Below are positions 9,169-64,000 of a stretch of 64,000 nucleotides of DNA, piece after piece. Position 1 is the stretch's first letter. Each line of letters opens with the position of its first letter. The translations under genes were made by a program, and so were the position numbers. The stretch comes from Deltaproteobacteria bacterium (GTDB lineage Bacteria; Chloroflexota; Dehalococcoidia; Dehalococcoidales; BS750m-G39): positions 98 through 64,097 of the forward strand of contig JAUVYB010000008.1 in the NCBI GenBank assembly GCA_030603275.1. Reading direction: 5' to 3'. The notes below the pieces were generated by a model. The model was given only the letters and a program-made list of their open reading frames with translations, ran no database searches and was not told the DNA's origin.

Positions 9169-9661
9169 CCCCCGGGCCGGGCGGTATGTAGCCTTTTTTC
9201 TTATCGCCTTACTGCTGGCGGTTGCCGACCAGCTCATCAAGTTCTGGATAAGGGAAAATCTGGCTATCGGGCAATCGCTGTGGAGATGGGGGATATTTGA
9301 GATAGCCCGTGTCCCCCCCAACACCGGTGCCGCCTTCGGCCTTTTCCCGGACCAGACGTTGCTCCTGGTCATAGTTTCCGGTATCGGCATCGCCTTTATT
9401 CTGGTCTACGCCTTTATTATGTACCGCCGCTACCCCTTTTTAGACAGCTGGCTTAGCCGGGTGGCGCTGGGCTTGATTTTAGGCGGTACCATCGGCAACC
9501 TGATTGAACGTATTCGCTACCTGCTGGGCCAGCTGGGCGGGGTCACCGACTTCATCCATATCGGCTGGTGGCCGCCGTTTAACCTGGCCGATTCGGCGGT
9601 GGTGGTCGGTGTTATTTTGTTTATATATACTCTCTTTCCCCTGGCCCAGAAGCGTGATTAG
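9152..9661 (+). CDS. lspA: lipoprotein signal peptidase II
   Basis: Motifs ADQLIKFWI, NTGAAFG and FNLADSAVVVG. The ATG at 9152 is preferred, because the longer track ORF from 9035 overlaps the dksA-like gene. Confidence 0.85.
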   Translation: MPKVNNPRAGRYVAFFLIALLLAVADQLIKFWIRENLAIGQSLWRWGIFEIARVPPNTGAAFGLFPDQTLLLVIVSGIGIAFILVYAFIMYRRYPFLDSWLSRVALGLILGGTIGNLIERIRYLLGQLGGVTDFIHIGWWPPFNLADSAVVVGVILFIYTLFPLAQKRD

Positions 9662-9666
9662 TCGGC

Positions 9667-39792: not shown

Positions 39793-42700
39793 TCAGGGTA
39801 CTCTCCTGGTGGTGACTATCAGGACTATCACCGCAATTACCAATATGGCGCCGATGATAACTATCGCCCAGATCCAGGCAGGAGTTATCACGTCAGGTTG
39901 CTCCACTACTATCGGTGGTGGTGCATCAGTAACCACGGGTGGCGTACCCATGGTAGTGAATGTACCAACATCACTCCATGGAGTATCGGTATCAACACCA
40001 ATAGCCTTCACATGCCAGTAGTAGCGAGTTTCGTAATCAAGGGTGGTATCGCACTTCCAGGCAGTGCTGACCAGAGAGTCGGTACCGACCAGTGCCACCA
40101 GAGGCGCAGCGAAGTAACCGCCGGCAGTGGTCGTTGGGTCAATGGCGAGCTCGTACTCGTAAACCTCTGCCCACTCAATGCCAGACCACTCAAAGGTCGG
40201 GCTTAGAGGAACATCAGGCTCGCCGGGCCATGGCGCCTGCAGGTCAGGTCGTGCCATAGAGGCACCGATAGCCGTCTTGAACTTCCAGGTCTCAGACCAG
40301 GGAGAAATCAGCGGTGCGCCGATAAGGCTACCCTGATTAGCAACCCTCACCCTCCAGTAGTAGGTCATGTTGGGATTGAGTGTCAGAGGCGGTGTTGCCA
40401 GTGATCTGGTGTAGCTATTAGGTGGAGTCACCACGGTCTTGAAGGCGGCGTCAATGGCTACCTGGTACTGGTAGCTGGTAGCGCCGGCCATCTCCTGCCA
40501 GGCTAGGTTGACTTCGGGATACACATAGCCCTCAGGCAGCAGCCCGACTCCGGTTTCATCCGCAGCCGGCATTGCCAGCGGCACACCGACGTTCAAAATG
40601 TCGGTGAACATTACTACCTGATCCCAGTAGTTGGCAGGGAGAGCAGCGCCGTTGAAGCAGAAGAATGTCGGTGCCAGTGCCGGTGGCGCTAGGTCCAGGC
40701 TCAGCAGCCCGAGTGCGTCGCCGGTATCAAGTCCCTTGTTCTCCCTCTCAAAGTAGGGTGGAACAACGCTGTCGGTATCGGCGGTGGCATTGGTGCTGCG
40801 CCACAGGCCGCCCTCGTCAGTGCCCACAGTCGTGGCGTCGATTGCGTAGAGGACGCCGCTGGGCGGCAGGGCTATCGCCGGTCCGCCGGCTGTAAAGTTG
40901 CTCTCGTCGTAAACCACGGCACCCGTGGAATCCTGGTTGTTATCTATCCGCTCCCACTCGGCATCGCCGGGGTTGTCAAGGTCAACCACGCAGCGCATTA
41001 CACCCTGATCGATACCAACGGGGGTGGTGGCGTAGAGGATGCCGTTGCCGGCAAAGCCGAGGTCAGAGGTGGCTATTGTCGGCAGGCCGGTGAAGGGGTT
41101 GTCAGTCCCCACATTCTCCACCGTCTCGCCGCCGTCGCTGGAGATGAACACTCCACCCACAGCGCCGATAAGGACGACATCTCCCATAATGCCTATATTG
41201 ATTATCCCAGCCGCAGCCGGAATCTCACTGTCGTCGGGTTTGTTCCAGCCCGTGCCGGACCTGGTCGTCCACCATATCTCGCCTGCGCTACCGGTGTAGA
41301 GCGTCGTCGCCGATACGGGGGCAACCGTTGTCAGAGGTGTCTTGGCGGATATCTTCTTCGGGAAGGTGGTGCCCATGTCGGTTGACCGCCAGATCAATTC
41401 GGCACCCAGGTCGGTAGCGAACATGGCGCTGCCGTCCCCCAGGATGTCAAGCCGGTTTAGCCCGTCGGTCACGCCGGGGGTGGCGTAGGAGAGTATCCTC
41501 TCCCAGTTCTTGCCGTCAATTCTGCCCCACAGCGCGCCGTCGTTGGCGTCAACCTGGGTAATCGCCCACAGCGTGCCGTTGGCGTTGTAGCCGTTGGCGC
41601 TGAAGCCCGTCGGAGCTGTGATGGCGTAGCAAGGCTCGTCTAAGGTGTCATCAAAGCCGTAGTCTATTATGCTTATCTGGTTCCAGCTCGCGTTGCCGTT
41701 GGTGGTGCGCTGGAAGGCGTCGGTCATGTAGCCCCAGGTTGATGCGTAGGCCAGACCGCTGTCACAGTAGCCGGGCGCCATCAGCACCCCGGTGTTGACA
41801 CGCTGGTATTGTAGGTTAGGCGCATTCTCGGCTCCGCCGGTGGGGCACTTGAAGGAGAACATCCAGCTATCGCCGCTGTCCTCACTGTGGTAGGTGGACC
41901 AGCACGCCGGCGTATCGGTCAGGTCTATGAGGTCGGTGCCCACCAGTATGGTGGCTGCCTCGGCATCGCCGCACACGTCAATGCTGGTAACCGGCGTTGA
42001 CGTCGGCAGCAGGGTGGTGATTACCCCCCTCACGTCAAGGTCTATCGTCGAGGAGGGTCCCGCCTCCTTGAGCACTACCTTGTAGGCGTCGCTGCCGCCA
42101 TTTTCATTAAAGTTAACGCCCAGGTTTCCGAGGAAACCGTTTTCAACTATGCCCGCGAAGCAGACGTTGTTGCCGATGCCGAATGCGTCAAAGTCGTCGG
42201 GGAAGGCAATCTTGGCCCAGTCCGAATCGAAAGGAGTGCCCCAGGCATTGGTGAAGGGTCCGTTGGAGATGTCGTCTCCCCATTCACCGCCGTCAGCGAC
42301 GTTGGCGAAGGAGAACGTCATCGTGGTTGTCCAAGGGCTATCGTAGTCGGTGACTATGGCGCAGATGCCTATGTCGCCGTCAGCTGCGAAGGTGGGCAGG
42401 AAGGCGCAGGCCAGCACATTGTCGGTGGCGTCAAGGGGTGGGTCAGCGGCAATAAGCTGTGGCGTCCAGGCCAGCAGCCCCGATGTCACGTATACTTCGG
42501 GCTCGGTGGTGGCCACTATTAATGACAGGTCGCCGTCCTCGGCGATGGCTATATCCAGATCGTTAATAGTGCCGCCCCAGGGGTCATTAAGCGCAGTAAA
42601 GTTCTTGCCGCCGTCCTCCGAAATGTAGACGAAGTCCTCGGTGGCTACGGCCAGGGTGGTGTCGTCGTCGTACTCCGGCGAGGTCACGATGTCCACTATG

Positions 42701-43101
42701 GGGTCGCCAGTCACAGCATCATCGTAGAAGCCGGTGACTATCCAGGAGTAGCCGCCGTCGGTGGACTTCAGCAGGTGGAACCAGCTGGAGCCGAGGTAGA
42801 AGCCGTCAGCCACCGCCGCGAACAGGATGCCGCCGTCGGGCGTCTGGGCTATCGGCCCTAGGTCAGCCGCCGGTGTCGCCCAGAAATCGCCCTCGGAGTC
42901 AGCAAACTCGCCGGCGAGAATGGTGGTGCCGTAGCTCGTATAAGTGGCGCCGTAGTCCTCAACCTTGGGCAGTTCCAGCTTGGTAAACTTCAGGTTGCTG
43001 GAAGCCGCTCCGGCCGGGACTCCTGCCAGGCCAACTGTTAGGCTGGCCAGCAGCACCACTGTCAGGGCCACTCCCACTATTTTATAAAGTTTTGTTTTCA
43101 T
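39793..43101 (-). CDS. giant surface protein, paralog of 36673-39636
   Basis: Asp-box-like motifs include STDGGYSW, SEDGGKNF, SEDSGDSW, TTNGNASW, STDMGTTF and SSDGGETV. Two YYWRVR/YYWHVK modules and a C-terminal TM (WIWAIVIIGAILVIAVIVLIV) with a TTRRVP tail. The ATG at 43101 (MKTKLYKIVG...) is preferred over the TTG at 43158. Confidence 0.8.
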   Translation of the reverse strand: MKTKLYKIVGVALTVVLLASLTVGLAGVPAGAASSNLKFTKLELPKVEDYGATYTSYGTTILAGEFADSEGDFWATPAADLGPIAQTPDGGILFAAVADGFYLGSSWFHLLKSTDGGYSWIVTGFYDDAVTGDPIVDIVTSPEYDDDTTLAVATEDFVYISEDGGKNFTALNDPWGGTINDLDIAIAEDGDLSLIVATTEPEVYVTSGLLAWTPQLIAADPPLDATDNVLACAFLPTFAADGDIGICAIVTDYDSPWTTTMTFSFANVADGGEWGDDISNGPFTNAWGTPFDSDWAKIAFPDDFDAFGIGNNVCFAGIVENGFLGNLGVNFNENGGSDAYKVVLKEAGPSSTIDLDVRGVITTLLPTSTPVTSIDVCGDAEAATILVGTDLIDLTDTPACWSTYHSEDSGDSWMFSFKCPTGGAENAPNLQYQRVNTGVLMAPGYCDSGLAYASTWGYMTDAFQRTTNGNASWNQISIIDYGFDDTLDEPCYAITAPTGFSANGYNANGTLWAITQVDANDGALWGRIDGKNWERILSYATPGVTDGLNRLDILGDGSAMFATDLGAELIWRSTDMGTTFPKKISAKTPLTTVAPVSATTLYTGSAGEIWWTTRSGTGWNKPDDSEIPAAAGIINIGIMGDVVLIGAVGGVFISSDGGETVENVGTDNPFTGLPTIATSDLGFAGNGILYATTPVGIDQGVMRCVVDLDNPGDAEWERIDNNQDSTGAVVYDESNFTAGGPAIALPPSGVLYAIDATTVGTDEGGLWRSTNATADTDSVVPPYFERENKGLDTGDALGLLSLDLAPPALAPTFFCFNGAALPANYWDQVVMFTDILNVGVPLAMPAADETGVGLLPEGYVYPEVNLAWQEMAGATSYQYQVAIDAAFKTVVTPPNSYTRSLATPPLTLNPNMTYYWRVRVANQGSLIGAPLISPWSETWKFKTAIGASMARPDLQAPWPGEPDVPLSPTFEWSGIEWAEVYEYELAIDPTTTAGGYFAAPLVALVGTDSLVSTAWKCDTTLDYETRYYWHVKAIGVDTDTPWSDVGTFTTMGTPPVVTDAPPPIVVEQPDVITPAWIWAIVIIGAILVIAVIVLIVTTRRVP

Positions 43102-43308
43102 CGACCTTAAATTATCCTCCTTATGTTGTTCCCCACATGAAGGGCAATTACCCCTCAATATGGAGACAAGGTTATAGTTTTTCTCGAAGTTAGACTCCTT
43201 TCCCTCGGGCTTAACTGCCCTTGGGCTCTCACCATCGCATCACCTCCTTTTAAAGTTATATCAATATATCAAAACTTTTCAGTTGTCAACCTGCTCATTG
43301 ATGTCTGA

Positions 43309-44203: not shown

Positions 44204-45265
44204 CTAATCAATTCCTATTGCTATCCAGCTGACCTCGGTAGCAGTGGTGCACGCGACGATAGCAGGAGGACCCGTGAGGTCTATCTCCCACACATAGATG
44301 TCAATCAGGCCGCCGCTTGTGCCGTCATACCAGGTGGCGAGGGCCCAGTCGGCGCTTGCCGAGTTAGCCCTTATTGTCAGCACGCACTCTGTGACTGATG
44401 AAAGCCCGGTATCAATGTCGGTAACGGAGCCGGTGAAGGTAGTGCCGCCCCAGGCTACCGTGCGGCCGGCGCTCTCACCCATGAGTGCGTTGGTGACGTC
44501 GGGACTAATCTTGGAGCCGTCTATAGCCGCCGTCCCGCTGATATCCTCATTAACTATTGCGGAATTCCCTATCTCCAGTGAGCCCACGGCATTGAAATCT
44601 ATGTCCTCTCTCTGGATTGTTCTGTCGTCTATATCCTCGGACAAGATCGACTCGTTGATTATCTCAGCGGAGCCAACCGAATTATCAGCCATCTCAGCAT
44701 TGCCTATGGCGTTGTCGGCCATCTTGCCCCAGGTCACCGCATTGTTGTCTATCTTTTCCTCGGTCACCGCCTCAGTGGCCAGGTCAGCGGTGTCAACCTC
44801 GCCGTCAAGTATTTTGGCCGTGGTCACCGCATCGTCGGCAAGCTGCGCTGTGCCAACGCTCCCGTCAAAAATATCGGCGCCGTCAATCTTCTCCAGGTCA
44901 CCGGCGTGGCGCCAGTCGCTCAGGTGGATTAAACCGGATAGAAGAATCTTGGCCGGGTCGATGTCAGCCGTATCGCTGATATCGGCATCAACTATTGTGC
45001 CGTCGGCTATCTTACCCGAGGTCACCGCGCCGCCGGCTATCTTGGCCGCGGTTATGGCGCCGGTTCCGATTTGCGGCTGACCGGCTGGTCCCGCTGGCCC
45101 CTGTGTGCCTGGCGGTCCGGATGGTCCCCGTGGCCCTGTTGCCCCCGGGGCTCCGGCTGGTCCGGCTGGTCCGGTTGCTCCCTGCCCTGTAGGGCAAGCT
45201 GTTAAGGGCACCACAAATAAAGCGATAATTATTAAGAAACCAACTATCTTAACTGCTTTCTTCAT
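44204..45265 (-). CDS. collagen-like lipoprotein 2
   Basis: The leader is nearly the same as in gene 1 (MKKAVKIVGFLIIIALFVVPLTAC). It has 12 G-X-Y triplets, about 18 tandem 9-10-aa repeats of the type AVTxxKIxDG, and a distinct C-terminal domain. Confidence 0.8.
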   Translation of the reverse strand: MKKAVKIVGFLIIIALFVVPLTACPTGQGATGPAGPAGAPGATGPRGPSGPPGTQGPAGPAGQPQIGTGAITAAKIAGGAVTSGKIADGTIVDADISDTADIDPAKILLSGLIHLSDWRHAGDLEKIDGADIFDGSVGTAQLADDAVTTAKILDGEVDTADLATEAVTEEKIDNNAVTWGKMADNAIGNAEMADNSVGSAEIINESILSEDIDDRTIQREDIDFNAVGSLEIGNSAIVNEDISGTAAIDGSKISPDVTNALMGESAGRTVAWGGTTFTGSVTDIDTGLSSVTECVLTIRANSASADWALATWYDGTSGGLIDIYVWEIDLTGPPAIVACTTATEVSWIAIGID

Positions 45266-47610: not shown

Positions 47611-50295
47611 CTATTCAATTTCACCCTCGGTGGTGTTGAAGACCTTGGGTAAGTAGGCCTCCAGGCCGAGCGAGTTGGTGGCCATCAGCTCTATATGAAG
47701 ATCCTGCCCGCAGTAGGCATCTATCTCCATCATATCCTCAAAGAACTCCGTAGATATATCTTGGAGATTGACCAGCGGCTCTCCGTTCACATTCAGAGCT
47801 ATACTGGTGACCGGCAGCAGGCCGCCGGTGAGGTCACGGGCGTGGAATCTGATGGTAACCAGGCAACCCTGGCATTCCTCGTCCACATAGGAGCAGTTGG
47901 AATAGCCTTCAAGGTAAATTTGCAGCACATCCTGGGATAGCGGCATAGTCACCCAGACGCTGGCAGAGTCCTGGTCGTTAACGACCACGTTGTAGTCATA
48001 GCCGCAGTGGGCGCTGGCGTAAACTGTATTTATGTTCTCCCCCGTGTCCTTGGCGATGGCTTCATATTCAATAGCTATACTTTCTCCCGGCGCCAGGGCC
48101 TCTATCTCCATCAGGTTCCAGTTCAGCGTTACTCCCCCCTCGCCCGGGCTGATGCTACCGGGTTCTCTGCCGTAAGATTCGCCGTCGATGTAAATCACCG
48201 CCCCACCGCCGTACTCCAGGCAGTCGGGCAGGAAGTCCACTATCTCCATCTCGACGATGTCGCGGCACTTGCCGCTGCTCTCGATATCCACTCTAAAGGT
48301 AACCATCTGGTCGGGCCAGACTTCAATCTCATCCACCCACTCCTCACCCATCTCGTCCCAGACCCATTTCTCCACATCTATGCCCGGTGAGCAGGGGCAC
48401 GTGCAGTCGCACCACTGGTTATCGCTCCAGGGCTGCTGCCCCGTACCGTTGGCATCTCGGTGCTCGTTTACCGCCGCCTCGCCTGAAGCACCGGCTTCGG
48501 CGGGGTCAACGCCGTCGGGCGGGTCGGTGGTATCCGCTTTGGGGTCGCCGGCAGCCTCGGCAAAGCCGTTGGTATAGACGCCCCCGCTGGGGGTGGCCCG
48601 TGACGGGGTGTCGGTTGACGTGCCCACCACCGCCCTTCCCTGCCCGGTCACCCCGGGCTTATTAAAGTTGCCCGCGTAACAGGACTCTATTATCACACTA
48701 ACGTGGCAGCACTTGCTCGGCGTTTCGCAGTCTTCATCGGGGCAGGGGGCGATTTTAGCCAGAAGGGCGGATAGGTCACCCGGTTTCATTTCCTCCTGCG
48801 TTTTACCACTGCTGTTCTTCAGGGCGATACCCCCGCCCCCCGTCTTCTGGCCGTGTCCGCAGATATATATCAGGACATAGTCCCCGCACTTAACGCTATC
48901 GGCCAGGTCGTCAAAGGCCTGGGCGATGCTGGCCAGGGAGTTATTGCCGGGGCCGAGATTACCCATTGAGGAATAGCCCTGTTCGGCGGCAACCTTGTTT
49001 ATCGTGTCAACGGAACGCTGCACGATAGGTGTCCCCTGGGCTGTATGTTTGGCCATATCGCCGCCGCTGATGGTAATCACGTAATAATTTATATCGTAGC
49101 CGCAGGGGCCCTTGGCCGGACCCGGCGGGGGCGGTCCCCCGTTACCGTTGCCGTTGGGTGGTGGTGGCGGTGGAGGTGGTGGAGGAGGCGGCGGCGGTGG
49201 CGGCGGGTTATCGGTCAGGAAACCGCAGTAGTCCTCGATTTCGCCGTAGTCAAACTGGCCGCTGCCGTCCCAGCCGCCCACATTGGCGAACTGGCTTTCC
49301 TCGATTTTAGCCCGGGTCAGGGCCAGTCTCATCCATACCGGCCAGACCGGCGGGGTCGCTTTCCCCCAGGCAAAGAGGGGGGTCATTATCGTATCCGAGG
49401 TGCCGGGCTTGACTTTTACCTCCAGGTTGACGGTAACCCACTCCGCCCCGGCGGCACCGCTACTCCAGTTCCCGCTCTGGTCAAAGTCAATCAGGGCGTT
49501 GGCGTAGCGGGTAATATCGGGGGCGCCGGCGCTGACGGCCACGGTAAAGGCCAGCCTGGCCTGGCTCTGTTCGGTAATGATATATATTCTCTCGTCGCTG
49601 TCGGCATCAACCAGGTTAGGCACGCCGTCGGGGTCACTGGGGTCGCTGGCGTCGACCTCGGCGCTGACGTTAAAGCCGAGGGTTTCTTCGCCGGTGTTGA
49701 GGGTATGCCCTCCCGGTCGGCCGAAATGACTGTTGGTGGTATTAAATAGGGTTGGGTAGCGCCCCATGACCCCGTAGTAGGCGTCCTGCCCGTCGGGGGC
49801 GTCCCCGTAGTCGCCAATGGGGTTGGTATTGGCGCTGCCGGCAATCGGCCCGGGGAAGCCCAGTACCGACCAGACCTCGATGAGGTGTCCCCGCCCCACA
49901 TTATCGGTATCCCACATCGAGAAATTATTGATCAGGGGCGGCCAGCTTTCATTGACGATGTTATAAGTGCCGTTTCGGGTGTCGATAAAAACATAGCGGG
50001 TAGCGTGGGCGTAGAATGCCTGCGGGTCATCATCGATAAAAATAAACCAGGTGCTGGCGTTTATCGGGTAATCGGTGCCGCTCTCCGAGGTGACCACGTC
50101 GCCCTTCTTCAGCGGCTCGGAGGGCATAAAGGCCGAAATTCGGGTGTCGTCGGCGGCCGGGGGTATTATCTCACCCACCAGTATATCGATAGCCCCCCAC
50201 TTATCGATACCGGGCTTGGGACATCCGGTCAAGGGTATAGTGATAAGGACAACAATTAGCAGACAGGAAATTAATATTTTTTTGGTGGTGTTCAT
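47611..50295 (-). CDS. multidomain lipoprotein: GEVED-like domain, poly-Pro spacer, clan CD (C13/caspase-like) peptidase-like domain, Ig-like (CARDB/DUF11-type) C-terminal domains
   Basis: Lipobox-like [13 protein letters not shown]...FDYGEIEDY brackets a GEVED-type domain. There are 17 consecutive Pro, then [24 protein letters not shown]...[13 protein letters not shown] resembles the His-Gly/Cys dyad of clan CD peptidases. Confidence 0.65.
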
Positions 50296-57224: not shown

Positions 57225-57779
57225 ATGGAGTATCTCTGGTTCATAGCCTTGGCCGTGGTAGTGGTCGGGGTGGGCGGCTGGCAGCTGGCGGTCTGGATAG
57301 TCGAAAGCCGGGCCAAAAGCCGGCAATACAAGGCCGCCTGTGCCTGCGCCCGGGAGAAAGGCAAGCCACTGCTGGTGGCCGGCGGCCCCTGGGGCGCTAC
57401 CCGGACCCGCCACCGGTTGAACAAACCGGCTCACGGCAGCGGTGACGTCTGCTTGGATATTAACCCGCGCGCCTTTGACGGCCACCCCAGGGCGATAATG
57501 GCCAGTGTTACCCATATTCCCTTTGCCGATAAATGCTTCGGGGCCGTTTTTGCCAGCCACCTGCTGGAGCACCTGCCCACGGTGGATGCCGCCAGCCAGG
57601 CCTTGGCCGAGCTTAACCGGGTAGCCGAGGCGGTCTATATCGTCTATCCCTCGCGGCAGTCCTTCGGCGGCTGGATGGTACCCGACCACCACCTCTGGGT
57701 CTGGCAGAAGGACAACACCACCTACCTCAGGCAGAGAGGTAAATCAAACGGCAAGAGGGCGGCAGAATATTATGGTTGA
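57225..57779 (+). CDS. membrane-anchored class I SAM-dependent methyltransferase-like protein
   Basis: N-terminal TM helix, then DVCLDINP...THIPFADKCFGAVFASHLLEHLP, which resembles the Methyltransf_11 core. Confidence 0.55.
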   Translation: MEYLWFIALAVVVVGVGGWQLAVWIVESRAKSRQYKAACACAREKGKPLLVAGGPWGATRTRHRLNKPAHGSGDVCLDINPRAFDGHPRAIMASVTHIPFADKCFGAVFASHLLEHLPTVDAASQALAELNRVAEAVYIVYPSRQSFGGWMVPDHHLWVWQKDNTTYLRQRGKSNGKRAAEYYG

Positions 57780-58599
57780 ATTAGCCGGAACCGACTTTAA
57801 TAATAAAGATAGTGCGGTAGATATGGCCGATGTCGCCCTGGCCTTGTGGGAAGAAGCCCGCCATATCGGCCGCCAGCTTTTCGGCGATGATGTGGAGAAA
57901 GGCGTCGGCTTTGCCGACCGGCTCATGGCAATCTACCAGGACGCCCAGGGCAAGGACTTTCTGCTTATCCATAACCCCGGCGGCTGGGGCAACTCGCCGC
58001 TGGAAAACTGCATGCACTGGGAGAGAAGCGTGATCGCCGGAATCAGCGCCACCCTGGAAAAGCTGGGCTACAGCTGGTTCTTAAGCCAGCACTTCCGCGC
58101 CAGCGTCGGCTGGCGGGCACACCTGCGGGATATCAGGGATTACCTTCGTTTCTTTACCGTCAAGCGCCGGGTTTTAGCCGCCGAGGTGGAATTTTTAACC
58201 AAACACCTGAAAAACCTCAAGGTGATACTCATCGGCATCAGCCAGGGCGCCGGCTTCAGCAATGCGGTGATGCAGCGTTTAAGCGAGCTCAAGCGCGTTT
58301 ACAGCATAGAGCTGGGCGTCTTTTTCTTCCTCCGGCCGCGGCGGGTAATTACCGAAAGGACGCTGATAATAGACCATAACGGGCTGATGCCCGATGCCGT
58401 TTTCGAGGGGGACTTAATCACCATGGTCATGACCCTGCCCATGGCTTTCTTGCGGTGGGTCAAGTGTCGGCTCAAGGGCAAGCCAGTTAACTTCAGCCAC
58501 TGCATCAAGCTCGCCGGTCATGATTATCACTGGAAATACCCCAAGGTCAGCCAGCAGATTGGGAGCTTCCTCAAGGTCAACTTCGGCGCCAGGCGTTAG
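57772..58599 (+). CDS. hypothetical protein, possible alpha/beta-hydrolase fold
   Basis: 275 aa. GISQG (G-x-S-x-G nucleophile-elbow pattern) follows a beta-strand-like VILI. Overlaps the upstream gene by 8 nt. Confidence 0.4.
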   Translation: MVELAGTDFNNKDSAVDMADVALALWEEARHIGRQLFGDDVEKGVGFADRLMAIYQDAQGKDFLLIHNPGGWGNSPLENCMHWERSVIAGISATLEKLGYSWFLSQHFRASVGWRAHLRDIRDYLRFFTVKRRVLAAEVEFLTKHLKNLKVILIGISQGAGFSNAVMQRLSELKRVYSIELGVFFFLRPRRVITERTLIIDHNGLMPDAVFEGDLITMVMTLPMAFLRWVKCRLKGKPVNFSHCIKLAGHDYHWKYPKVSQQIGSFLKVNFGARR

Positions 58600-58651: not shown

Positions 58652-58727
58652 GGGGCCGTAGTTCACTTGGGAGAACGTTTGACTGGCAGTCAAAAGGTAG
58701 GGGGTTCGAATCCCCCCGGCTCCACCA
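58652..58727 (+). tRNA. tRNA-Ala (anticodon GGC), CCA encoded
   Basis: Manual cloverleaf: acceptor GGGGCCG/CGGCTCC with the G3:U70 alanine identity pair, D stem GTTC/GAAC, anticodon stem TTTGA/TCAAA with loop CTGGCAG, and T arm GGGGG-TTCGAAT-CCCCC. Confidence 0.93.
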
Positions 58728-58825: not shown

Positions 58826-59443
58826 CTAATCTAAGCCTGGCTTTGCCTTTTCCACAAAATGCGCCGAGGCATACCGGCATAGCCTTTGACTGCCGGGCAA
58901 TTTCTTAAACCTGGCCACTTCATCGTCACCGATAACCGCTATCGTGCCGAATCTATCCTGTATATCCTGGGCAAAAGCACAGTGCCCGCATTCATATTCA
59001 CGGTCGCAAAGACGGTAAGAGACGGCGCCGAGTTCCAGCCACAGGTGTTTCTTAGCGGCTTTTTTTGCTTCTGCCTCCCCCAGCGCCTGGGAAATCAACT
59101 TTTCCAGGTCCTCGACCTTGAAAGGCTTGGCCAGATAGTCCATCAGCCCCAGCTTTTTAGCTCTGTCCTGGGTTTCCTTGGAAGGGTAGGCGGTAATTAT
59201 TACTCCCTTGGTTTCAGGCTTAAGCTCTTTGGCATGTTCGAACACCTGCAGGCCATCGATATCCGGCAGCTTCAAATCCAGAACGATGACCCCAAACTCT
59301 TCCTTCTTAATTTTCTTTAGTGCCTCCTCCCCACTCTCGGCAACTTCAACATCATAGCCGTCCTCAACCAGCCACTCCCGCACGCTGTCCCTCACTACTG
59401 CCTCATCCTCCACGATGAGCACCTTTCTTTTCTTCGTTGCCAT
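58826..59443 (-). CDS. response regulator: receiver domain plus C-terminal Cys-rich module (RR1)
   Basis: Receiver with VEDE, acceptor VLDLKLPD and AKPF. The C-terminus has SYRLCDREYECGHCAFAQ and LPGSQRLCRYA. GGAGG RBS. Confidence 0.85.
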   Translation of the reverse strand: MATKKRKVLIVEDEAVVRDSVREWLVEDGYDVEVAESGEEALKKIKKEEFGVIVLDLKLPDIDGLQVFEHAKELKPETKGVIITAYPSKETQDRAKKLGLMDYLAKPFKVEDLEKLISQALGEAEAKKAAKKHLWLELGAVSYRLCDREYECGHCAFAQDIQDRFGTIAVIGDDEVARFKKLPGSQRLCRYASAHFVEKAKPGLD

Positions 59444-59533
59444 CGTTTTCCTCCTTCCTTAAAATAAAGGGCACGCTCTGATTTGAAGCATACCCTCTAC
59501 TATAAATCTATGTCAATAGCCGGAATTTCTTGG

Positions 59534-60550
59534 CTAAGCCTTGGTCTTCTGCTCCTTCTTCAGCAGCGCTTCCCGCCGCGCCTGTAGCTTGACCAGCTTT
59601 TGCTGCGTGGCGTCTTCCATCATCTGGCCGAACTCACAGGTGGCGCACTTGAAGGTCCGGGTGCACAGGCGGTGGGAGACGTCCCCTTTAAGGGCATAGC
59701 GGCAGAGTCTCTGGCTCCCCGGCAGTTCCTTGAACCGCTCCAGCGCCTGGTCAAGCTCAGGGGTTGCCCCGCTGGCTATTTTCTCCTGCATCATCTGGTC
59801 AAACTCGCAGGTCAGGCAGTCGTAATCCCGGGTGCACAGGCGGTAAGATACCAGCCCCATCTTCATCCACAGGCACTCCTTGGGCTTTACCTCTTCGGCG
59901 ATAGCCTCCTCCCCGGCCACTGCCTCAACCCTCGGTGTTTCCAGTGCTTCCCTTGTCTTCCGTATCCAGACACGGGCCTCGATATTGCCCGGGGCGATGC
60001 CGAGGATAGCCTCAAATTCCCTCAGTGCCTCGCCGTAGCGGCCGGCCTCAAAGTGGGCCTTGCCCTGCTTGAGGTGGACCGGTATTTCTTCCGGAGCGAC
60101 CGTTGTAACCTTCTCAACCTCCACTTCCTCAACCGCTGGCGGCTCAACTTTAGCTTTTTCAGGGGCGGCCTTGGGCTTTATCTCCACCTGCACTGGGCCC
60201 AGGGTATCCCGGATTATTTTCTCCAGCTGATTAAGGTCAAAGGGCTTGGGCAAATAATCAAGAGCCCCCTCCTTGGTTGCCTCCACCGCCGTCTCCACCG
60301 ATGGGTAAGCGGTAATAATGACCCCCTTAAGCTGTGGGCTCTTCTCCTTAGCCTCTCTTAACACCTCAATCCCGTCCTTCCCCGGCAGCTTCAGGTCAAG
60401 GATAACAATGCCAAAGTCCCGCTCGGCAATAGCTTCCAGTGCTTCCTCTCCAGCCTCAGCCGTCTCCACCTTATAACCACCGTCGGTCAGCCAGTCCCTG
60501 AGTGCCTCCCTGGTGATGGCCTCGTCCTCTACTATCAATATCGGCTTCAT
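59534..60550 (-). CDS. response regulator: receiver, TPR-like helix pair, duplicated Cys-rich module (RR2)
   Basis: The ATG at 60550 has a GGAGG RBS. The longer track ORF would run through the sigma-54 promoter. C-terminal motifs are SYRLCTRDYDCLTCEFDQ, LPGSQRLCRYA and SHRLCTRTFKCATCEFGQ. Confidence 0.85.
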   Translation of the reverse strand: MKPILIVEDEAITREALRDWLTDGGYKVETAEAGEEALEAIAERDFGIVILDLKLPGKDGIEVLREAKEKSPQLKGVIITAYPSVETAVEATKEGALDYLPKPFDLNQLEKIIRDTLGPVQVEIKPKAAPEKAKVEPPAVEEVEVEKVTTVAPEEIPVHLKQGKAHFEAGRYGEALREFEAILGIAPGNIEARVWIRKTREALETPRVEAVAGEEAIAEEVKPKECLWMKMGLVSYRLCTRDYDCLTCEFDQMMQEKIASGATPELDQALERFKELPGSQRLCRYALKGDVSHRLCTRTFKCATCEFGQMMEDATQQKLVKLQARREALLKKEQKTKA

Positions 60551-60594: not shown

Positions 60595-60610
60595 TGCAAT
60601 TTTCCTGCCA
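60595..60610 (-). promoter_or_regulatory. sigma-54 (-24/-12) promoter TGGCAGGAAAATTGCA
   Basis: Matches TGGCAC-N5-TTGCW with exact GG-N10-GC spacing. It is 45 nt upstream of the RR2 ATG and directly downstream of a sigma-54 activator gene. Confidence 0.75.
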
Positions 60611-60683: not shown

Positions 60684-62048
60684 TTATCGCTTATTGTCTA
60701 TTTTCTTTACATTTAATCTATAGGCCTTGATCTTATTATAGAGGGTCATCCGGGAAATACCCAGTATTCTAGCCGCCTCGGTATAATTTCCTCTGGCTTT
60801 GGCCAGCACATCCTGGATATGCTTTTCCTCCACCTGTTTAAGGTTCTTCGCCGGTGAGGTTGAGCCGGCCGGCATCAGCTCCTGCTGGGACAGGTCGGCA
60901 GCCTCAATAACGGAATTTTGGGCCAGGATGACGGCTCTTTCAATAGCGTTTTCCAGCTCCCGGACATTACCCGGCCAATCATGTTTCAGCAGAAAATCGG
61001 TGGCCTCAGGGGAAAATCCGGCTATCTCCTTCTGGTTCTCCAGGGCAAACCCCTTTAAGAAATGCTCAGCCAGCAGGGGAATATCCTCCGTCCTTTCTCT
61101 CAAGGGGGGCAGTTCAATGTTAACCACGTTCAGCCGGTAGTAAAGGTCTTCCCTGAATTTCCCCTGGGCTATCGCTTCTTTCATATCCACGTTGGTAGCC
61201 GAGATAACCCGCACATCAACCTTAACCGGCTCATTGCCGCCCACCCGGTTAAACTCCTTCTCCTCCAGGACTCTGAGCAAGTGGACCTGGATATTGGCGC
61301 TCATCTCGCCAATCTCGTCCAGGAACAGCGTGCCACCGTCAGCCGCCTCAAACTTCCCCTTCTTCTGGGCGTAGGCCCCGGTAAAGGAGCCTTTCTCATG
61401 GCCGAATAGCTCACTTTCCAGCAGGCTCTCGGGCAGGGCGGCGCAGCTGACGGCGACAAAGGGCCTGTCACGGCGGTAGCTCTGGGAATGGACGGCCCGC
61501 GCCACCAGCTCCTTACCGGTGCCGGTATCGCCGGTAATCAATACGGTGGCGTTGCTCTTGGCTACCATCTTGATTACCTCAATCACCTGCTGCATCCTGG
61601 AGCTTTTGGCGACGATATTCTCAAACCGGTAGCGCTCCTCCAGTTTCTGGTGCAGGGCGATGTTCTCCTCCCGCAGCCGCCGGTGCTCCATCAGCTTCTC
61701 AATCAATATCTCGGCCCGTTCCGGGCAGAAAGGCTTCTCGATGTAGTCATAAGCGCCCTCCCTGATGGCATTAATGGCGGTGGGGATGCTGCCATAGGCG
61801 GTAATGATAATCACCTCTATGCCGGGGAGTAGTTCCCTGGCCTTTTTCATCACCTCAATCCCGTCCATTCCCGGCATCACCAGGTCGGTAATAAGGACTG
61901 CCGGCTTCTCTTTCCGGATAATCTCCAGGGCCTGGGGGCCGTTCTCGGCGGTAAGCACCTGGTGGCCAACGTCGTCCAGCCAATCACGCAGCGATTCGCG
62001 GACGATGGCTTCATCATCAGCGACCAGTACTTTAGTTTTCTTCTTCAT
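60684..62048 (-). CDS. sigma-54-dependent response regulator (NtrC-type enhancer-binding protein)
   Basis: Receiver (VADDE, ITDLVMPGMDG), AAA+ core with GDTGTGKE and the GSFTGA sigma-54 contact loop, and a C-terminal Fis-type HTH (AARILGISRMTLYNKIK). Confidence 0.93.
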   Translation of the reverse strand: MKKKTKVLVADDEAIVRESLRDWLDDVGHQVLTAENGPQALEIIRKEKPAVLITDLVMPGMDGIEVMKKARELLPGIEVIIITAYGSIPTAINAIREGAYDYIEKPFCPERAEILIEKLMEHRRLREENIALHQKLEERYRFENIVAKSSRMQQVIEVIKMVAKSNATVLITGDTGTGKELVARAVHSQSYRRDRPFVAVSCAALPESLLESELFGHEKGSFTGAYAQKKGKFEAADGGTLFLDEIGEMSANIQVHLLRVLEEKEFNRVGGNEPVKVDVRVISATNVDMKEAIAQGKFREDLYYRLNVVNIELPPLRERTEDIPLLAEHFLKGFALENQKEIAGFSPEATDFLLKHDWPGNVRELENAIERAVILAQNSVIEAADLSQQELMPAGSTSPAKNLKQVEEKHIQDVLAKARGNYTEAARILGISRMTLYNKIKAYRLNVKKIDNKR

Positions 62049-63267
62049 GGTGCCGTGGCAGGTAGATAGTAAAGGTGGTACCCTCTCCTTCTTTACTCTG
62101 GACTTCTATTCGGCCTTTATGGCGCTGGATAATGCCGTAGGCCACCGCCAGACCGAGGCCCACCCCCTTCCCCTTCTCCTTGGTGGTAAAGAAGGGGGTG
62201 AACAGTTTGTGCATATTCTCTTTAGAGATACCCTGACCCGTGTCCTGGACCTCTATTTTAAGCTGATTGTCGTCGGCCGAGGTGCGCAGGGTCAGCCTGC
62301 CCCCTTTGGGCATGGCCTGAAGGGCGTTCATAATGAGGTTGAGGCTAACCTGTTGAAGCTGGTCGAAATCAGCCATAATATTAGGCAGGGAAGAGGCAAG
62401 CTCTTTGCTCACCTGGATATTCTGTAGTTGAGCCGAATGAGCAGCAAGTTCAAGGGCCCGTCCCAGGACTTCGTTGGCATTCACCTCTCTTAGAGCTGGT
62501 GGCGACTGGCGAGCAAAATCCAGAAGGTTGCGGATTAATCTGGAGCTTCGGATAAGTTCAGTCTCCATTTTAGCCAGGGATTCAAGGGCACCCTCTTTGG
62601 TGAATGTGCCGCTATTCAGCTTTTTAGCCAGCAACTGGGTATAGACCAGGACTCCGGCCAGGGGATTATTTACCTCGTGGGCAATAGAAGCCGCCATCTG
62701 ACCCAGAGAAGTCAGCTTCTCCGCCTGGATTAGCTGTTCCTGGTTTTCCCTGAGGCGTTTATCATATTGGCTGAGTTCCTTATAGGCTTTATCCAGTGCG
62801 GCACGTGCCCTTCTTTCACCCTCAATCCGGCTGAGCTGCATTGCCACCAGCGTGCCAATAAAAGCGGCAAGGATGACAAAGAGGGCCGCCCGGACGAGCG
62901 GGTCGGTGTAAGGGGAGAAAAGCAAGGCACGCGGCAGTACCACGCAGAGAAAAGTGAAGGAGGTTATCAGGCTTCCCCACACCCCGAATACCATAGCCGC
63001 GTAGACTATGGGAATGAAGAACAAGGTCCGGTGTAAATCGTGGACGCCGGTGAAAAAGCTGTGGCTAAACGGCGCCAGGCTAACCAGCGGAGTCTGGTCA
63101 ATATAGTAAACGAGAGTAAGAAAGGCCATCAGCGCCACTATTATCCAGCAATGGGGACTGCGCACGCCTCTTGGCCTCCGCTCATCGGATAGCCATGCCA
63201 CCAGCCTTCCGGCGCTGTTTTCCTCCCAGCGCTGCCAGGTGCTCTTTGGGGTGTTATCGTTGTTCAT
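62032..63267 (-). CDS. membrane sensor histidine kinase
   Basis: About 4-5 N-terminal TM helices with no large extracytoplasmic loop. H-box SIAHEVNNPL, N-box LNLIMNALQA, G-boxes VQDTGQGI and GKGVGLGL. Overlaps the activator gene by 17 nt. Confidence 0.9.
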   Translation of the reverse strand: MNNDNTPKSTWQRWEENSAGRLVAWLSDERRPRGVRSPHCWIIVALMAFLTLVYYIDQTPLVSLAPFSHSFFTGVHDLHRTLFFIPIVYAAMVFGVWGSLITSFTFLCVVLPRALLFSPYTDPLVRAALFVILAAFIGTLVAMQLSRIEGERRARAALDKAYKELSQYDKRLRENQEQLIQAEKLTSLGQMAASIAHEVNNPLAGVLVYTQLLAKKLNSGTFTKEGALESLAKMETELIRSSRLIRNLLDFARQSPPALREVNANEVLGRALELAAHSAQLQNIQVSKELASSLPNIMADFDQLQQVSLNLIMNALQAMPKGGRLTLRTSADDNQLKIEVQDTGQGISKENMHKLFTPFFTTKEKGKGVGLGLAVAYGIIQRHKGRIEVQSKEGEGTTFTIYLPRHHEEEN

Positions 63268-64000
63268 GATTCCCTCCCCTGAGTTAAGGCTTGTTTTCGC
63301 TTACGCACCGCCGGTATCTTCAATTCCTTCCTCAAATCGGCCACCGAGCGCCGGGAGATAGCCACGCCGAATTTCTCCAGCAGCTTTGCCCTGATTGCCT
63401 CATCGGAGAGAAGCCCCTCCTCGGCCTCAAGCAGCTGCTTTAGGAGTTCCTTCTTGAACATCCTCGGCCTGGGGAAAAAGTGTTTCAGGGGAACTTCTTC
63501 ACCCCAGGGTGTACCAATGCTCTTGCCCCTTGTGGCACGGCTTACCGAGCTTGTGGCCAGCCCAATCTTTTTGGCCAGCTCCTGCTGGCTGAAGGGCAGG
63601 AGGGCCTTCAGGTTGCCGGAGTCCAGGTAAAGCGCCTGCTTATCAATGATGTTCTGCAATATCTGAGTGATTGTGTCCTTGCGGCTGTTGACTAGCTCCA
63701 GCTTATTAAATAGCTGCCTGGCTTGCTTGCTTTCGGCCTTGGTGAAAGCCCCACTTGCTTTCAACTCCTCGAACCTCTGGTAATTAATGGAGTACCGCCC
63801 CCTGGCTAACGAGGCTGAAGAGTAGCCGATAACAAAGCCCCGTTCGTCCTTATCCACCGTGGCAACTTTATAATAGTGAATCGCCTCTGAGCTGAGGGCG
63901 GAAGGGTTATAGAACTCGCTCAGGATAGAAAGCTCATCGATAAGGCTGTTGATCTTTTGAACCTCGGAAACGGCCAGCCCACATTCTGCGGCTATTCCTT
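63264..64000 (-). CDS. rpoN: RNA polymerase sigma-54 factor, C-terminal part (5' end outside window)
   Basis: The frame stays open to the window edge. HTH ELAKKIGLATSSVSRATRGKS and an RpoN-box-like ISRRSVADLRKELKIP. The stop overlaps the kinase start (ATGA). Confidence 0.8.
   Translation of the reverse strand, partial: GIAAECGLAVSEVQKINSLIDELSILSEFYNPSALSSEAIHYYKVATVDKDERGFVIGYSSASLARGRYSINYQRFEELKASGAFTKAESKQARQLFNKLELVNSRKDTITQILQNIIDKQALYLDSGNLKALLPFSQQELAKKIGLATSSVSRATRGKSIGTPWGEEVPLKHFFPRPRMFKKELLKQLLEAEEGLLSDEAIRAKLLEKFGVAISRRSVADLRKELKIPAVRKRKQALTQGRES

Follow-up and report, generated by a model that had tools for sequence, protein, structure and literature searches.

The two response regulators RR1 and RR2 encoded in the window (the whole stretch of 64,000 nucleotides analyzed here) share a cysteine-rich tail that is a tandem duplication of a four-ligand unit, and this Cys module represents a domain family that none of the databases searched (Pfam, NCBIfam and PDB sequences) contains. 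We somewhat favor the view that the tandem units bind metal, Zn(II) or Fe-S, and that the module is a sensor or partner-binding part of a two-component cassette. We infer metal binding, a shared kinase, an output through a protein partner and any redox role, with the shared kinase and the partner binding drawn from the arrangement of the genes and their paralogy. The classification of response regulators and sensor kinases relies on their input and output domains, and a recurrent but unlisted Cys domain is a gap in that catalogue. Defining the module would annotate many "hypothetical protein" entries as well as mis-named "glycine cleavage system protein H" entries. Dehalococcoidia are important in organohalide respiration and subsurface hydrogen cycling, and to our knowledge almost none of their regulation has been studied. 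Once the metal and the partner of the module are defined, hydrogen and redox regulation in uncultured anaerobes would become directly testable.

Two receivers with a duplicated Cys unit

The features of the two genes are as follows.

58826..59443, minus strand: RR1 gene, an ORF of 205 aa with REC, one Cys unit and a truncated second unit
59093..59425, minus strand: RR1 receiver (REC), Pfam Response_reg at residues 8-117, E 2.6e-28, profile positions 1-110 of 111
58952..59053, minus strand: RR1 Cys unit 1, KKHLWLELGAVSYRLCDREYECGHCAFAQDIQDR, ligand candidates H133, C146, C152 and C155
58856..58885, minus strand: RR1 unit 2 remnant RLCRYASAHF, with C189 and H195, 9 residues before the protein end
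59487..59516, minus strand: candidate sigma-70-like promoter 5' of RR1, TTGACA-18-TATGCT, from a consensus scan (10/12 matches)
59534..60550, minus strand: RR2 gene, 338 aa with REC, linker, TPR-like hairpin, two Cys units and a basic C-terminal helix
60212..60541, minus strand: RR2 receiver (REC), Pfam Response_reg E 4.7e-29, full receiver domain
59942..60085, minus strand: RR2 TPR-like helical hairpin, TPR_2 E 3.6e-4 with 20.9 bits, short of the gathering cut-off (27)
59780..59881, minus strand: RR2 Cys unit 1, KECLWMKMGLVSYRLCTRDYDCLTCEFDQMMQEK, with C226, C239, C245 and C248
59609..59710, minus strand: RR2 Cys unit 2, RLCRYALKGDVSHRLCTRTFKCATCEFGQMMEDA, with C283, C296, C302 and C305
59537..59608, minus strand: RR2 C-terminal basic helix, TQQKLVKLQARREALLKKEQKTKA, where AF2 starts a helix (model residues 88-105)

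Both receivers contain the acidic pocket (VEDE), the phospho-acceptor Asp (VLDLKLP), the Thr (IITAY) and the Lys (KPF; AKPF in RR1), and with this complete REC signature RR1 and RR2 are predicted to be phospho-accepting receivers. Their REC domains are 56% identical. In RR1 and RR2 the NCBIfam matches to AtoC/NtrC models are confined to the receiver, and Pfam revealed neither Sigma54_activat nor HTH_8. The RR2 start at 60550 is an ATG with a ribosome-binding site, AAAGGAGG, just upstream; the 338 aa are counted from this ATG, and the 372-aa ORF found at RR2 is an upstream extension. RR2 orthologs of the same length and architecture are P0410 (338 aa) and a 360-aa gene in locus L015. In the AF2 run with close homologs, the hairpin region formed three confident helices with block-mean pLDDT of 88-96, and several homologs carry precomputed TPR matches. 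The K, R and R of the basic C-terminal helix are invariant in the Dehalococcoidia subfamily, the only subfamily that has this helix, and it is absent from RR1. The helix could bind nucleic acid or membrane.

The earlier note had described a Cys-rich tail common to both response regulators, and the ORFs, the Pfam REC matches and a regex for the unit all agree with this. Each repeat spans 34 residues, C/H-x-W-x3-G-x-V-S-Y-R-L-C-x5-C-x2-C-x-F-x-Q, and carries four ligand candidates spaced C-x12-C-x5-C-x2-C (C or H at the first position). When the profiles of unit 1 and unit 2 were compared by hhalign, they aligned over 34 columns with a probability of 99.3% and an E-value of 1e-20, first Cys on first Cys. 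The shared tail is thus a tandem duplication of a four-ligand unit. What had been described as the motif and a separate partner, LPGSQRLCRYA, is actually the linker end and the first Cys of the second unit (C-R-Y-x-L-x-G-x-V-S-H-R-L-C...). The count of four Cys given for RR1 is right (146, 152, 155 and 189, beside the conserved His133 at the first-Cys position and His195), but RR2 has eight Cys and not seven, the one overlooked being the Cys in K-E-C-L-W. A regex search in all six frames of the window found C-x5-C-x2-C with its flanks three times, in the RR1 and RR2 genes only, and the G-S-Q-x2-C-R element twice. Chance or low complexity was rejected as the origin of the pattern, given this regex specificity, the hhalign match between the units and the 481 cluster representatives of the family described below.

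All eight tail Cys of the RR2 type are invariant in 59 close homologs. In a diverse alignment of 42 homologs with 25-66% identity, seven are invariant, including every Cys of unit 2, and one is at least 90% conserved. This is the opposite of the non-conservation that would have spoken against a metal site; conservation over this range is what a metal site predicts, and four ligand positions kept across distant homologs are the general mark of a metal-binding Cys4 site. In a few members His, Ser or Gly takes the place of the first ligand of unit 1, and a strict Cys4 site is therefore not universal. After the last Cys, the residues F-D-Q-M..D/E are kept. The net charge of the module averages +1.2 among family members and ranges from -10 to +12.

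RR1 orthologs were found in 10 Dehalococcoidia species loci, with ORF lengths of 194-229 aa, and the His in place of the first Cys is kept in all 10. The unit 1 stretch of RR1 is 52% identical to unit 1 plus linker of RR2, and its second unit breaks off after CRYA. In all 10 orthologs the C-R-Y and S-x-H-F of this remnant are also kept. Considering that RR1 retains CRYA despite the loss of the remaining unit 2, we considered a swapped fourth ligand, C-x5-C-x2-C-x33/34-C, in an adrenodoxin-like manner. As a general rule this finds no support: the length of the linker between the units varies widely across the family, and the single-unit GcvH fusions P0235, P0254 and P0267 keep all four in-unit Cys. 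The full sequence of P0267 has no additional Cys between the unit and the GcvH-like domain, so a single unit looks self-sufficient. In RR1 itself the fourth ligand may be swapped.

A domain family outside the profiles searched

The RR1 and RR2 tails had no significant match in Pfam (searched at E ≤ 10), NCBIfam or PDB sequences. Two module profiles found no match among PDB sequences either, and no Pfam or NCBIfam profile covers the module in 147 homologs. The best Pfam match of the tails was zf-CHY at E 0.021, whose 15.7 bits fall short of the cut-off (31.3), and HVO_2753 scored E 1. No zinc-finger family in Pfam exceeded its gathering threshold in the tails, and none was found among the 147 homologs. 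The tails have no Pfam match to Fer4 or Fer2, and the Fer4 and Fer2 matches in the homolog P0205 lie outside the Cys units. In the GcvH fusions the GCV_H match begins after the module, and the NCBIfam model GcvH_rel_desulf covers only the GcvH-like part. A derivation of the Cys unit (W-x3-G...) from the GcvH N-terminal strand was rejected, because the hhalign comparison of either unit with 34 GcvH-like domains gave a probability of 0.3%. No description of the module was found in the literature searched.

An AF2 model built with the 59 close homologs was unusable in the Cys part (pLDDT below 50), whereas the diverse alignment gave a mean pLDDT of 89.1 and a pTM of 0.72. In this model the module is mostly helical, with the last two Cys at the N-terminus of a helix. 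A Foldseek search with a threshold of E ≤ 0.001 revealed no neighbor in PDB (best E 9.6, TM 0.22) or among the viral predicted folds of BFVD (best E 2.7). The predicted fold is therefore compact and mostly helical, with no structural neighbor in PDB or BFVD. Structure prediction and a Foldseek search were among the checks proposed in the earlier note, which could not map the tail to a standard output such as an HTH, GGDEF or AAA+ domain; the Foldseek result and the profile searches above agree that it is none of these, and no already characterized domain emerged with confidence from Pfam, NCBIfam or PDB.

An exhaustive HMMER search at E ≤ 1e-3 gave 481 cluster representatives. Among 243 homologs whose architectures were tabulated, two units alone make up the protein in 134 (about 140 aa), at least 39 have two units followed by a GcvH-like domain and seven have a TPR ahead of two units. 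The receiver forms comprise ten of REC with two units, two of REC-TPR with two units and two of REC with a single unit. In P0141, TPR and two units form the N-terminus, i.e., the sensor position, of a histidine kinase. The tabulation of fusion partners, suggested at the outset, thus yields REC, TPR, GcvH-like and histidine kinase partners around a mostly standalone module. The module occurs standalone, N-terminal to GcvH-like domains, C-terminal to REC and N-terminal to the kinase. It is not special to response regulators; the majority of homologs stand alone or are joined to a GcvH-like domain.

Signaling genes adjoin family members in nearly all cases. Standalone TPR-unit-unit genes are divergent from a NarL-type regulator and a kinase in 14 of 19 loci, and the form fused to a kinase adjoins a NarL-type regulator too. 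In Desulfobacterota and one other lineage, module genes adjoin a kinase and a sigma-54 activator and lie behind sigma-54-like promoters. The family is widespread among anaerobes. The named hosts are Dehalococcoidia, Syntrophobacteraceae, Desulfobaccales, Desulfococcaceae, Aminicenantes and candidate division B38, all from lineages known to be anaerobic.

A conserved sigma-54 cassette

Upstream of RR2 the window contains the following features.

60595..60610, minus strand: predicted sigma-54 -24/-12 promoter, TGGCAGGAAAATTGCA, 45-60 nt upstream of the RR2 start
60684..62048, minus strand: NtrC-type sigma-54 activator with REC, AAA+ and Fis HTH (Sigma54_activat E 7.8e-76, Response_reg, HTH_8)
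62032..63267, minus strand: histidine kinase with a membrane N-terminus, HisKA and HATPase_c (Pfam)
63264..64000, minus strand: RpoN-like gene (Sigma54_DBD, Pfam E 2.2e-24), its ORF continuing past the window end

The pattern TGGCA-N6-TTGCW has a single match in the window, which is the RR2 promoter. With a promoter at the right distance and an enhancer-binding protein nearby, RR2 is predicted to be a sigma-54-dependent gene. We surveyed 62 Dehalococcoidia species loci (GTDB), including 40 RR2-type and 19 standalone genes. In other genomes a -24/-12 element lies upstream of 35 of 40 RR2-type genes but none of the 19 standalone genes, against a background rate of 0.046 per 400 nt. The conserved Dehalococcoidia order is a short RpoN-like gene, the kinase, the sigma-54 activator, the sigma-54 promoter, RR2 and then RR1. 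The activator is directly upstream of the RR2-type gene in 32 of the 40 loci, the RpoN-like gene is found in 30 of the 40 cassettes, and RR1 is present in 10 of these loci, in six of them directly downstream of RR2.

The REC domains of RR2 and the adjacent sigma-54 activator are 52% identical. The histidine kinase at 62032..63267 is likely to be the cognate kinase, and in locus L013 an ortholog of it is followed directly by an RR1 ortholog. About 10 cassettes have a membrane kinase of the type in the window. In about 25 related cassettes the kinase beside the NtrC-type activator carries Fe_hyd_lg_C ([FeFe]-hydrogenase-like) and Fe-S domains, and the cassettes of relatives often adjoin hydrogenase, maturation/HypF, Hdr-like or NuoEF-like genes. 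In the window, a Pfam scan of ORFs between 39.8 kb and 58.6 kb found no hydrogenase gene near RR1 and RR2. Because the window kinase is of the membrane type and not hydrogenase-like, any link to H2 at this locus is indirect.

The ORFs with Pfam matches in the interval from 39.8 to 58.6 kb have housekeeping functions or bear no relation to the cassette; they encode Rho, transaldolase, CTP synthase, DnaJ, a ClpB-like protein, a VTT-domain protein and a methyltransferase. Several others there have no Pfam match.

Possible functions and related systems

Most likely, each unit would hold one metal centre, Zn(II) or an Fe-S cluster, and the module would be a sensor or partner binder in two-component signaling rather than a DNA-binding output. 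In such a scheme the kinase would transfer phosphate to the sigma-54 activator, which would raise RR2 expression from the sigma-54 promoter; RR2 and RR1 would be phosphorylated by the same kinase as the activator, and the Cys module would relay the signal, or integrate metal or redox state, through a protein partner. Sensing or partner binding fits both the N-terminal sensor position in a kinase and the standalone genes beside two-component systems. A more specific version is possible but doubtful, namely that the module is an Fe-S signaling domain responsive to redox or H2 state in a new cascade controlling hydrogenase and Hdr-type electron-bifurcating complexes of Dehalococcoidia. The cascade would consist of the RpoN-like sigma factor, a sensor kinase (often [FeFe]-hydrogenase-like), the sigma-54 activator and the Cys module. 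RR2 and RR1 would act post-transcriptionally, with the tail binding either the activator or sigma-54 polymerase, as a PspA/NifL-like feedback, or redox enzymes. Desulfobacterota would have this switch in a receiver-free version, as the standalone and GcvH-fused proteins.

We think it unlikely that the tail is instead a new zinc-finger DNA-binding output with purely structural Zn at its Cys4 sites, which would make RR1 and RR2 conventional transcription factors activated by phosphorylation. A receiver followed by a small C-terminal domain, the layout of RR1 and RR2, is the commonest among regulators and typical of DNA-binding ones; a four-ligand site with a Cys-to-His swap (His133 of RR1) is typical of structural Zn, and the last two Cys at the modeled helix N-terminus recall many zinc fingers. 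The invariant basic helix of the RR2 subfamily points the same way, yet it is found in one subfamily only and RR1 does without it. The single predicted sigma-54 promoter in the window would serve only RR2, or perhaps RR1 as well, so that an RR2 target must be elsewhere. DNA binding is harder to reconcile with a family in which most members are not regulators, 134 of 243 being standalone and at least 39 fused N-terminally to a GcvH-like domain, while one group occupies the sensor position of a histidine kinase. Moreover, the positions conserved beyond the last Cys carry acidic or neutral residues, the net charge is near +1 on average but varies widely, and no similarity to DNA-binding families was found in Pfam or PDB.

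The cassette itself raises the question of whether RR1 and RR2 are phosphate sinks or competitors that tune the path from kinase to activator, with RR2 providing negative feedback and the tail serving stability or dimerization without a signal of its own, a reading to which we assign a low probability. Auxiliary receivers are well known as phosphate sinks, e.g., those of the CheY type; here a single kinase is accompanied by three receivers that are paralogs of each other (52-56% identity), and RR2 appears to be the product of a sigma-54 promoter under the neighboring activator, an arrangement seen in 35 of 40 loci. However, if the tail were passive, one would not expect it to retain eight (nearly) invariant Cys over 25-66% identity or to recur standalone beside other two-component systems and as a kinase N-terminus, and the GcvH-like fusions are left unexplained. 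The two roles are not exclusive, and the explanation that we prefer, in which the module binds metal and senses or contacts a partner, includes a sink whose tail is regulated. Very improbable in our view is that the Cys hold no metal and form a thiol/disulfide redox switch or structural disulfides. CxxC pairs, which the unit contains, are classical thiol switches, and relatives have redox neighbors (hydrogenase, Hdr-like and NuoEF-like genes). The proteins are nevertheless cytoplasmic and come from lineages known to be strictly anaerobic, which makes stable disulfides unlikely. Exactly four positions are conserved per unit, and one of them is changed from Cys to His across the RR1 subfamily; this fits metal ligation, as His cannot stand in for a disulfide partner.

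CheY, RssB and CpdR combine a receiver with a short or atypical C-terminal part and act through protein-protein contacts. RR1 and RR2 likewise have a canonical receiver, and RssB and CpdR models are among their NCBIfam REC matches, but the similarity is confined to the receiver and those proteins have no Cys-rich tail. The Wbl (WhiB-like) proteins of Actinobacteria are small (about 80-140 aa) [4Fe-4S] proteins that respond to redox or NO and act by binding a component of the transcription machinery. Like the module they are cytoplasmic and have four invariant Cys of which three lie close together, although their spacing, C-xn-C-x2-C-x5-C, is the mirror image of C-x12-C-x5-C-x2-C. No Whib match was found by Pfam in the tails or in the 147 homologs; in contrast to Wbl, the Cys unit is in tandem, belongs to other phyla, has REC, GcvH-like or kinase domains as fusion partners and is predicted to adopt a fold without a PDB neighbor. 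The ZAS domains (zf-HC2; e.g., RsrA) are redox-sensitive protein-binding modules in transcription control with an H-x3-C-x2-C motif. They resemble the module in a ligand set of the His/Cys-x-C-x2-C type with the last ligands at a helix N-terminus, but the ligand spacing differs, and the module has no zf-HC2 match and no link to a sigma-70-family partner.

Ferredoxins of the adrenodoxin/putidaredoxin type bind [2Fe-2S] through C-x5-C-x2-C-x35-37-C (CX5CX2C also occurs in the literature as a ferredoxin motif), and counting from the sequences gives C-x5-C-x2-C-x33-C for RR1 and C-x5-C-x2-C-x34-C for RR2. The resemblance is probably coincidental: the module has no Fer2 match, is predicted to be mainly helical and not a beta-grasp, has a linker of variable length across its family and, in the single-unit P0267, lacks a downstream Cys before the GcvH-like domain. 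In HydDB, [FeFe] group C1 hydrogenases are putative H2 sensors acting via histidine kinases (PMC5037454). Neither these nor the H2-sensing HoxBC/HupUV-HoxJ/HupT-HoxA/HupR two-component systems ([NiFe] group 2b, with HoxA/HupR of the NtrC type) include extra REC-Cys-module regulators, and the membrane-type kinase of the window has no hydrogenase-like domain; the likeness lies in the pairing of a hydrogenase-like kinase with an NtrC-type activator in the roughly 25 related cassettes.

The tandem Cys unit in RR1 and RR2

RR1 and RR2 are adjoining response-regulator genes on the minus strand, and the Cys-rich finding lies in the 3' part of each. They stand among the following features.

58652-58727, plus strand: tRNA-Ala (GGC), about 100 nt past the RR1 stop codon
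58826-59443, minus strand: RR1, 205 aa, with a full receiver (Pfam Response_reg, E 2.6e-28)
60684-62048, minus strand: NtrC-type sigma-54 activator, upstream of RR2
62032-63267, minus strand: histidine kinase, upstream of the activator
63264-64000, minus strand: RpoN-like gene, upstream of the kinase, running off the window end

The RR1 receiver is followed by about 75 residues that match nothing in Pfam or NCBIfam. RR2 starts at the ATG at 60550, with AAAGGAGG just before it, which gives 338 aa (372 aa for the ORF as listed). Its order, from Pfam, is a receiver (E 4.7e-29), an acidic linker, one TPR-like hairpin (TPR_2, sub-threshold at E 3.6e-4) and about 115 Cys-rich residues. Judging from identities of 56% between receivers and 52% between tails, the two proteins are paralogs. 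Several RR2 orthologs (L010 7001-8017, L015 310-1392 and P0126) carry, after a conserved basic helix, a Trp-rich tail, SWWWSYW[SD], which may be a membrane-interface anchor; RR2 of the window ends in KKEQKTKA, without this tail.

The repeat in the RR2 tail spans 34 residues and has four ligand positions with the spacing C-x12-C-x5-C-x2-C. Unit 1 reads K-E-C-L-W-M-K-M-G-L-V-S-Y-R-L-C-T-R-D-Y-D-C-L-T-C-E-F-D-Q-M-M-Q-E-K and unit 2 reads R-L-C-R-Y-A-L-K-G-D-V-S-H-R-L-C-T-R-T-F-K-C-A-T-C-E-F-G-Q. Profiles of the two units, built from 42 diverse homologs, aligned end to end with the first Cys in register (hhalign probability 99.3%, E 1e-20). The earlier note had counted seven Cys in RR2 and described a separate partner motif, LPGSQRLCRYA. 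Because two four-ligand units stand in tandem, the count is 2 x 4 = 8 (residues 226, 239, 245, 248, 283, 296, 302 and 305), and the supposed partner is the linker end plus the first Cys of the second unit. RR1 has a single unit, with His133 at the first-Cys position; its second unit stops right after C189-R-Y-A and is followed by S-x-H195-F. His133, the truncation and both of these motifs were kept in 10 of 10 RR1 orthologs. A six-frame regex scan of the 64 kb picked up the Cys motif at three places, all within RR1 and RR2.

Conservation, predicted fold and family of the module

All eight Cys are invariant in 59 close homologs. Across 42 homologs with identities of 25-66%, seven stay invariant and the first is conserved to at least 90%, as the metal-binding module proposed in the earlier note would lead one to expect; the W, the G and the Q that follows the last Cys hardly vary either. 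The first ligand of the unit is more variable, with His, Ser or Gly replacing Cys in certain members, and the three other Cys are strictly invariant. The single-unit GcvH fusions P0235, P0254 and P0267 keep all four in-unit Cys. The full sequence of P0267 has zero further Cys ahead of the GcvH-like part, which suggests that a single unit can suffice by itself.

AlphaFold gave a pLDDT below 50 over the Cys part from close homologs alone, and a mean pLDDT of 89.1 with a pTM of 0.72 from a diverse alignment. The predicted unit consists of a short strand, Cys1, a one-turn helix, a strand, Cys2, a Cys3-bearing loop, Cys4 and a long helix, with Cys4 of each unit at the N-terminus of that helix. The fold prediction of the module is confident, and a Foldseek search revealed no structural neighbour, the best E being 9.6 against the PDB and 2.7 against BFVD. 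The idea that the Cys unit is part of the GcvH fold was ruled out (probability 0.3%).

No known domain covered the module in Pfam (whole proteins; tails at E<=10), NCBIfam or the PDB sequences (two different profiles), and the top 147 homologs had no Pfam family over it, so the earlier note was right that it lacks an assigned domain. A word-indexed search found 214 close homologs of the RR2 tail, most of them ~206-aa TPR plus two-unit proteins of Dehalococcoidia/Chloroflexi without a receiver; for the RR1 tail, relatives are few. When 1.84 billion representatives were searched exhaustively by HMMER with a profile of one unit plus linker, 481 passed E<=1e-3, of which 87 also passed E<=1e-10. 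The family is large, and none of the databases searched contains it. Pfam domains among the top 147 matches were GCV_H (39), Response_reg (13) and TPR (8), with single cases each of HisKA/HATPase_c, Fer2/Fer4 and glycosyltransferase.

Architectures among 243 homologs (among the matches listed; the set is enriched for standalone forms by a third search). u, one Cys unit; REC, receiver domain; TPR, TPR-like hairpin.
u-u alone: 134
u-u-GcvH-like: 39
REC-u-u: 10
TPR-u-u: 7
REC-TPR-u-u: 2
REC-u: 2

In the GcvH fusions, two N-terminal units precede a GcvH-like domain, which by eye lacks the lipoyl-lysine of the canonical motif. The source names of the homologs are solely "hypothetical protein", "response regulator" or "glycine cleavage system protein H". 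The hosts with a name, taken from MAG labels, are Dehalococcoidia, Syntrophobacteraceae, Desulfobaccales, Desulfococcaceae, Aminicenantes/Acidobacteriota and candidate division B38, all presumably anaerobic. One protein from the representative search, P0205 (533 aa), is ordered unit, unit, 2Fe-2S (Fer2_4), 4Fe-4S (Fer4), unit, GcvH-like, the sole case seen of the module embedded among bona fide Fe-S domains.

Sigma-54 cassettes and other gene neighbourhoods

RR2 belongs to a conserved sigma-54 cassette. Upstream on its strand lie, in order, the activator, the histidine kinase and the RpoN-like gene, and TGGCA-N6-TTGCW matches just once in the window, 45-60 nt ahead of the RR2 start codon. A candidate promoter of sigma-70-like type precedes RR1; downstream of RR1 the tRNA-Ala is on the opposite strand, and therefore the operon ends at RR1. 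The RR2 receiver is 52% identical to that of the activator, and one kinase would feed three paralogous receivers. Sigma54_DBD was the sole profile match of the RpoN-like gene, with no activator-interacting or core-binding domain at the thresholds used. In relatives the RpoN-like gene is short (362-369 aa; L019 1773-2880, L010 2305-3393), and it could be a shortened sigma-54 paralog particular to the cassette. Elsewhere in the window, three ORFs had no Pfam match at E<=1e-5 (47611-50295, minus, 894 aa; 44204-45265, minus, 353 aa; 57772-58599, plus, 275 aa), and 39793-43158 (1121 aa) had a weak Ig-like match alone.

A scan with the TPR-u-u alignment, in which each GTDB species was represented by a single genome, revealed 62 loci, all in Dehalococcoidia/Chloroflexota MAGs save one labelled "delta proteobacterium". 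Two contexts were found, 40 REC-TPR-u-u genes versus 19 standalone TPR-u-u genes. The former have a sigma-54 activator directly upstream in 32 of 40, an RpoN-like gene in the locus in 30, and TGG[CT]-N7-TTG[CT] within 260 nt upstream in 35 (background, 0.046 per 400 nt); RR1-type genes occur in 10 of these 40 loci, directly downstream of RR2 in six, like in the window. The standalone genes have a sigma-54 element in 0 of 19, and 14 of the 19 are divergent from a NarL-type regulator and HisKA_3 kinase. At two further loci TPR-u-u is the N-terminus of a HisKA kinase, with a NarL-type regulator adjoining.

The kinase upstream of the activator is of two types. In about 25 cassettes it is ~650 aa long and combines Fe_hyd_lg_C with an Fe-S domain, HisKA and HATPase_c, matching a putative class of sensory [FeFe] hydrogenases called "histidine kinase-linked" (PMC5037454). 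A ~415-aa membrane kinase stands in about 10 cassettes, the window's among them. Kinases of the first type (L010 3390-5315, L022 2013-3956 and about 25 GTDB loci) place the [FeFe]-hydrogenase large-subunit domain and the PF04060 Fe-S domain ahead of HisKA/HATPase_c, and the L010 kinase begins with a 2x[4Fe-4S] ferredoxin-like stretch. Such kinases are candidates for H2 sensors of an [FeFe] group C1-like type, coupled to a sigma-54 activator. Downstream of RR2, other genomes encode NuoE/NuoF-like subunits, [NiFe] hydrogenase, HypF, a HycI-type protease, an HdrD-like CCG protein and a 1133-aa HdrA/GltD-like protein. No hydrogenase genes were found in the scanned part of the window, whose own kinase is the membrane type; the link to H2 comes from relatives, by association. 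At L013 an ortholog of this membrane-type kinase directly precedes an RR1 ortholog, and right after the pair (8793-10199) an RR2-like receiver is fused to a GltD/NfnB-like Fe-S flavoprotein (by eye, from sequence motifs), an unusual architecture of receiver and redox enzyme.

The association also recurs beyond Chloroflexota. In Desulfobacterota, standalone u-u and u-u-GcvH genes adjoin a PAS kinase and sigma-54 activator, and at three loci module genes stand behind a conserved TGGCATG-N4-TTGT. Another lineage has, in order, a HAMP-kinase, activator, sigma-54 promoter and REC-u-u. Upstream of the sigma-54-like promoter of a standalone module gene, L004 5700-5770 and L006 5670-5720 share a conserved inverted-repeat-like element, GGTGTACAG...(C)TGTACAC(C), which is a candidate for the site bound by the activator; the -12 element of that promoter is TTGT, not TTGC. 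At five Desulfobacterota loci (L004, L005, L007, L008 and L009) a conserved Peptidase_M54 (archaemetzincin-like) gene directly follows the u-u / u-u-GcvH pair on the opposite strand. The u-u gene (173 aa) and GcvH-like gene (159 aa) at L007 6001-6899 overlap in different frames, which looks like a u-u-GcvH fusion that was frameshifted or mis-assembled.

Proposed function and metal of the module

The module is systematically tied to two-component systems, fused to the receiver output end, fused to the kinase sensor end or in an adjoining gene. Three points speak against a DNA-binding role: the module is also found on proteins that are not regulators, acidic or neutral residues fill the conserved positions behind Cys4, and the net charge, with a mean of +1.2 and a range of -10 to +12, is not basic throughout. 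We instead propose a sensor or partner-binding domain in which each unit would bind one metal centre. Zn and Fe-S carry roughly equal weight for that metal: the Cys-to-His swap in RR1 and the CxxC at a helix N-terminus point to Zn, and Fe-S is suggested by the anaerobic lineages of all named hosts, the three strictly invariant Cys with a more variable first ligand, and the redox- or hydrogenase-related neighbourhoods.

In function the Cys-unit module comes closest to WhiB-like Fe-S proteins, zinc-containing anti-sigma domains and other small Cys4 regulators, and H2-sensing kinase/NtrC-type systems resemble the RR2 cassette at the system level. All profile and fold tests for membership in these families were negative. 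The module is a new family, though its general type is familiar, a small signalling domain that probably binds metal and that occurs in response regulators, in kinases and standalone.
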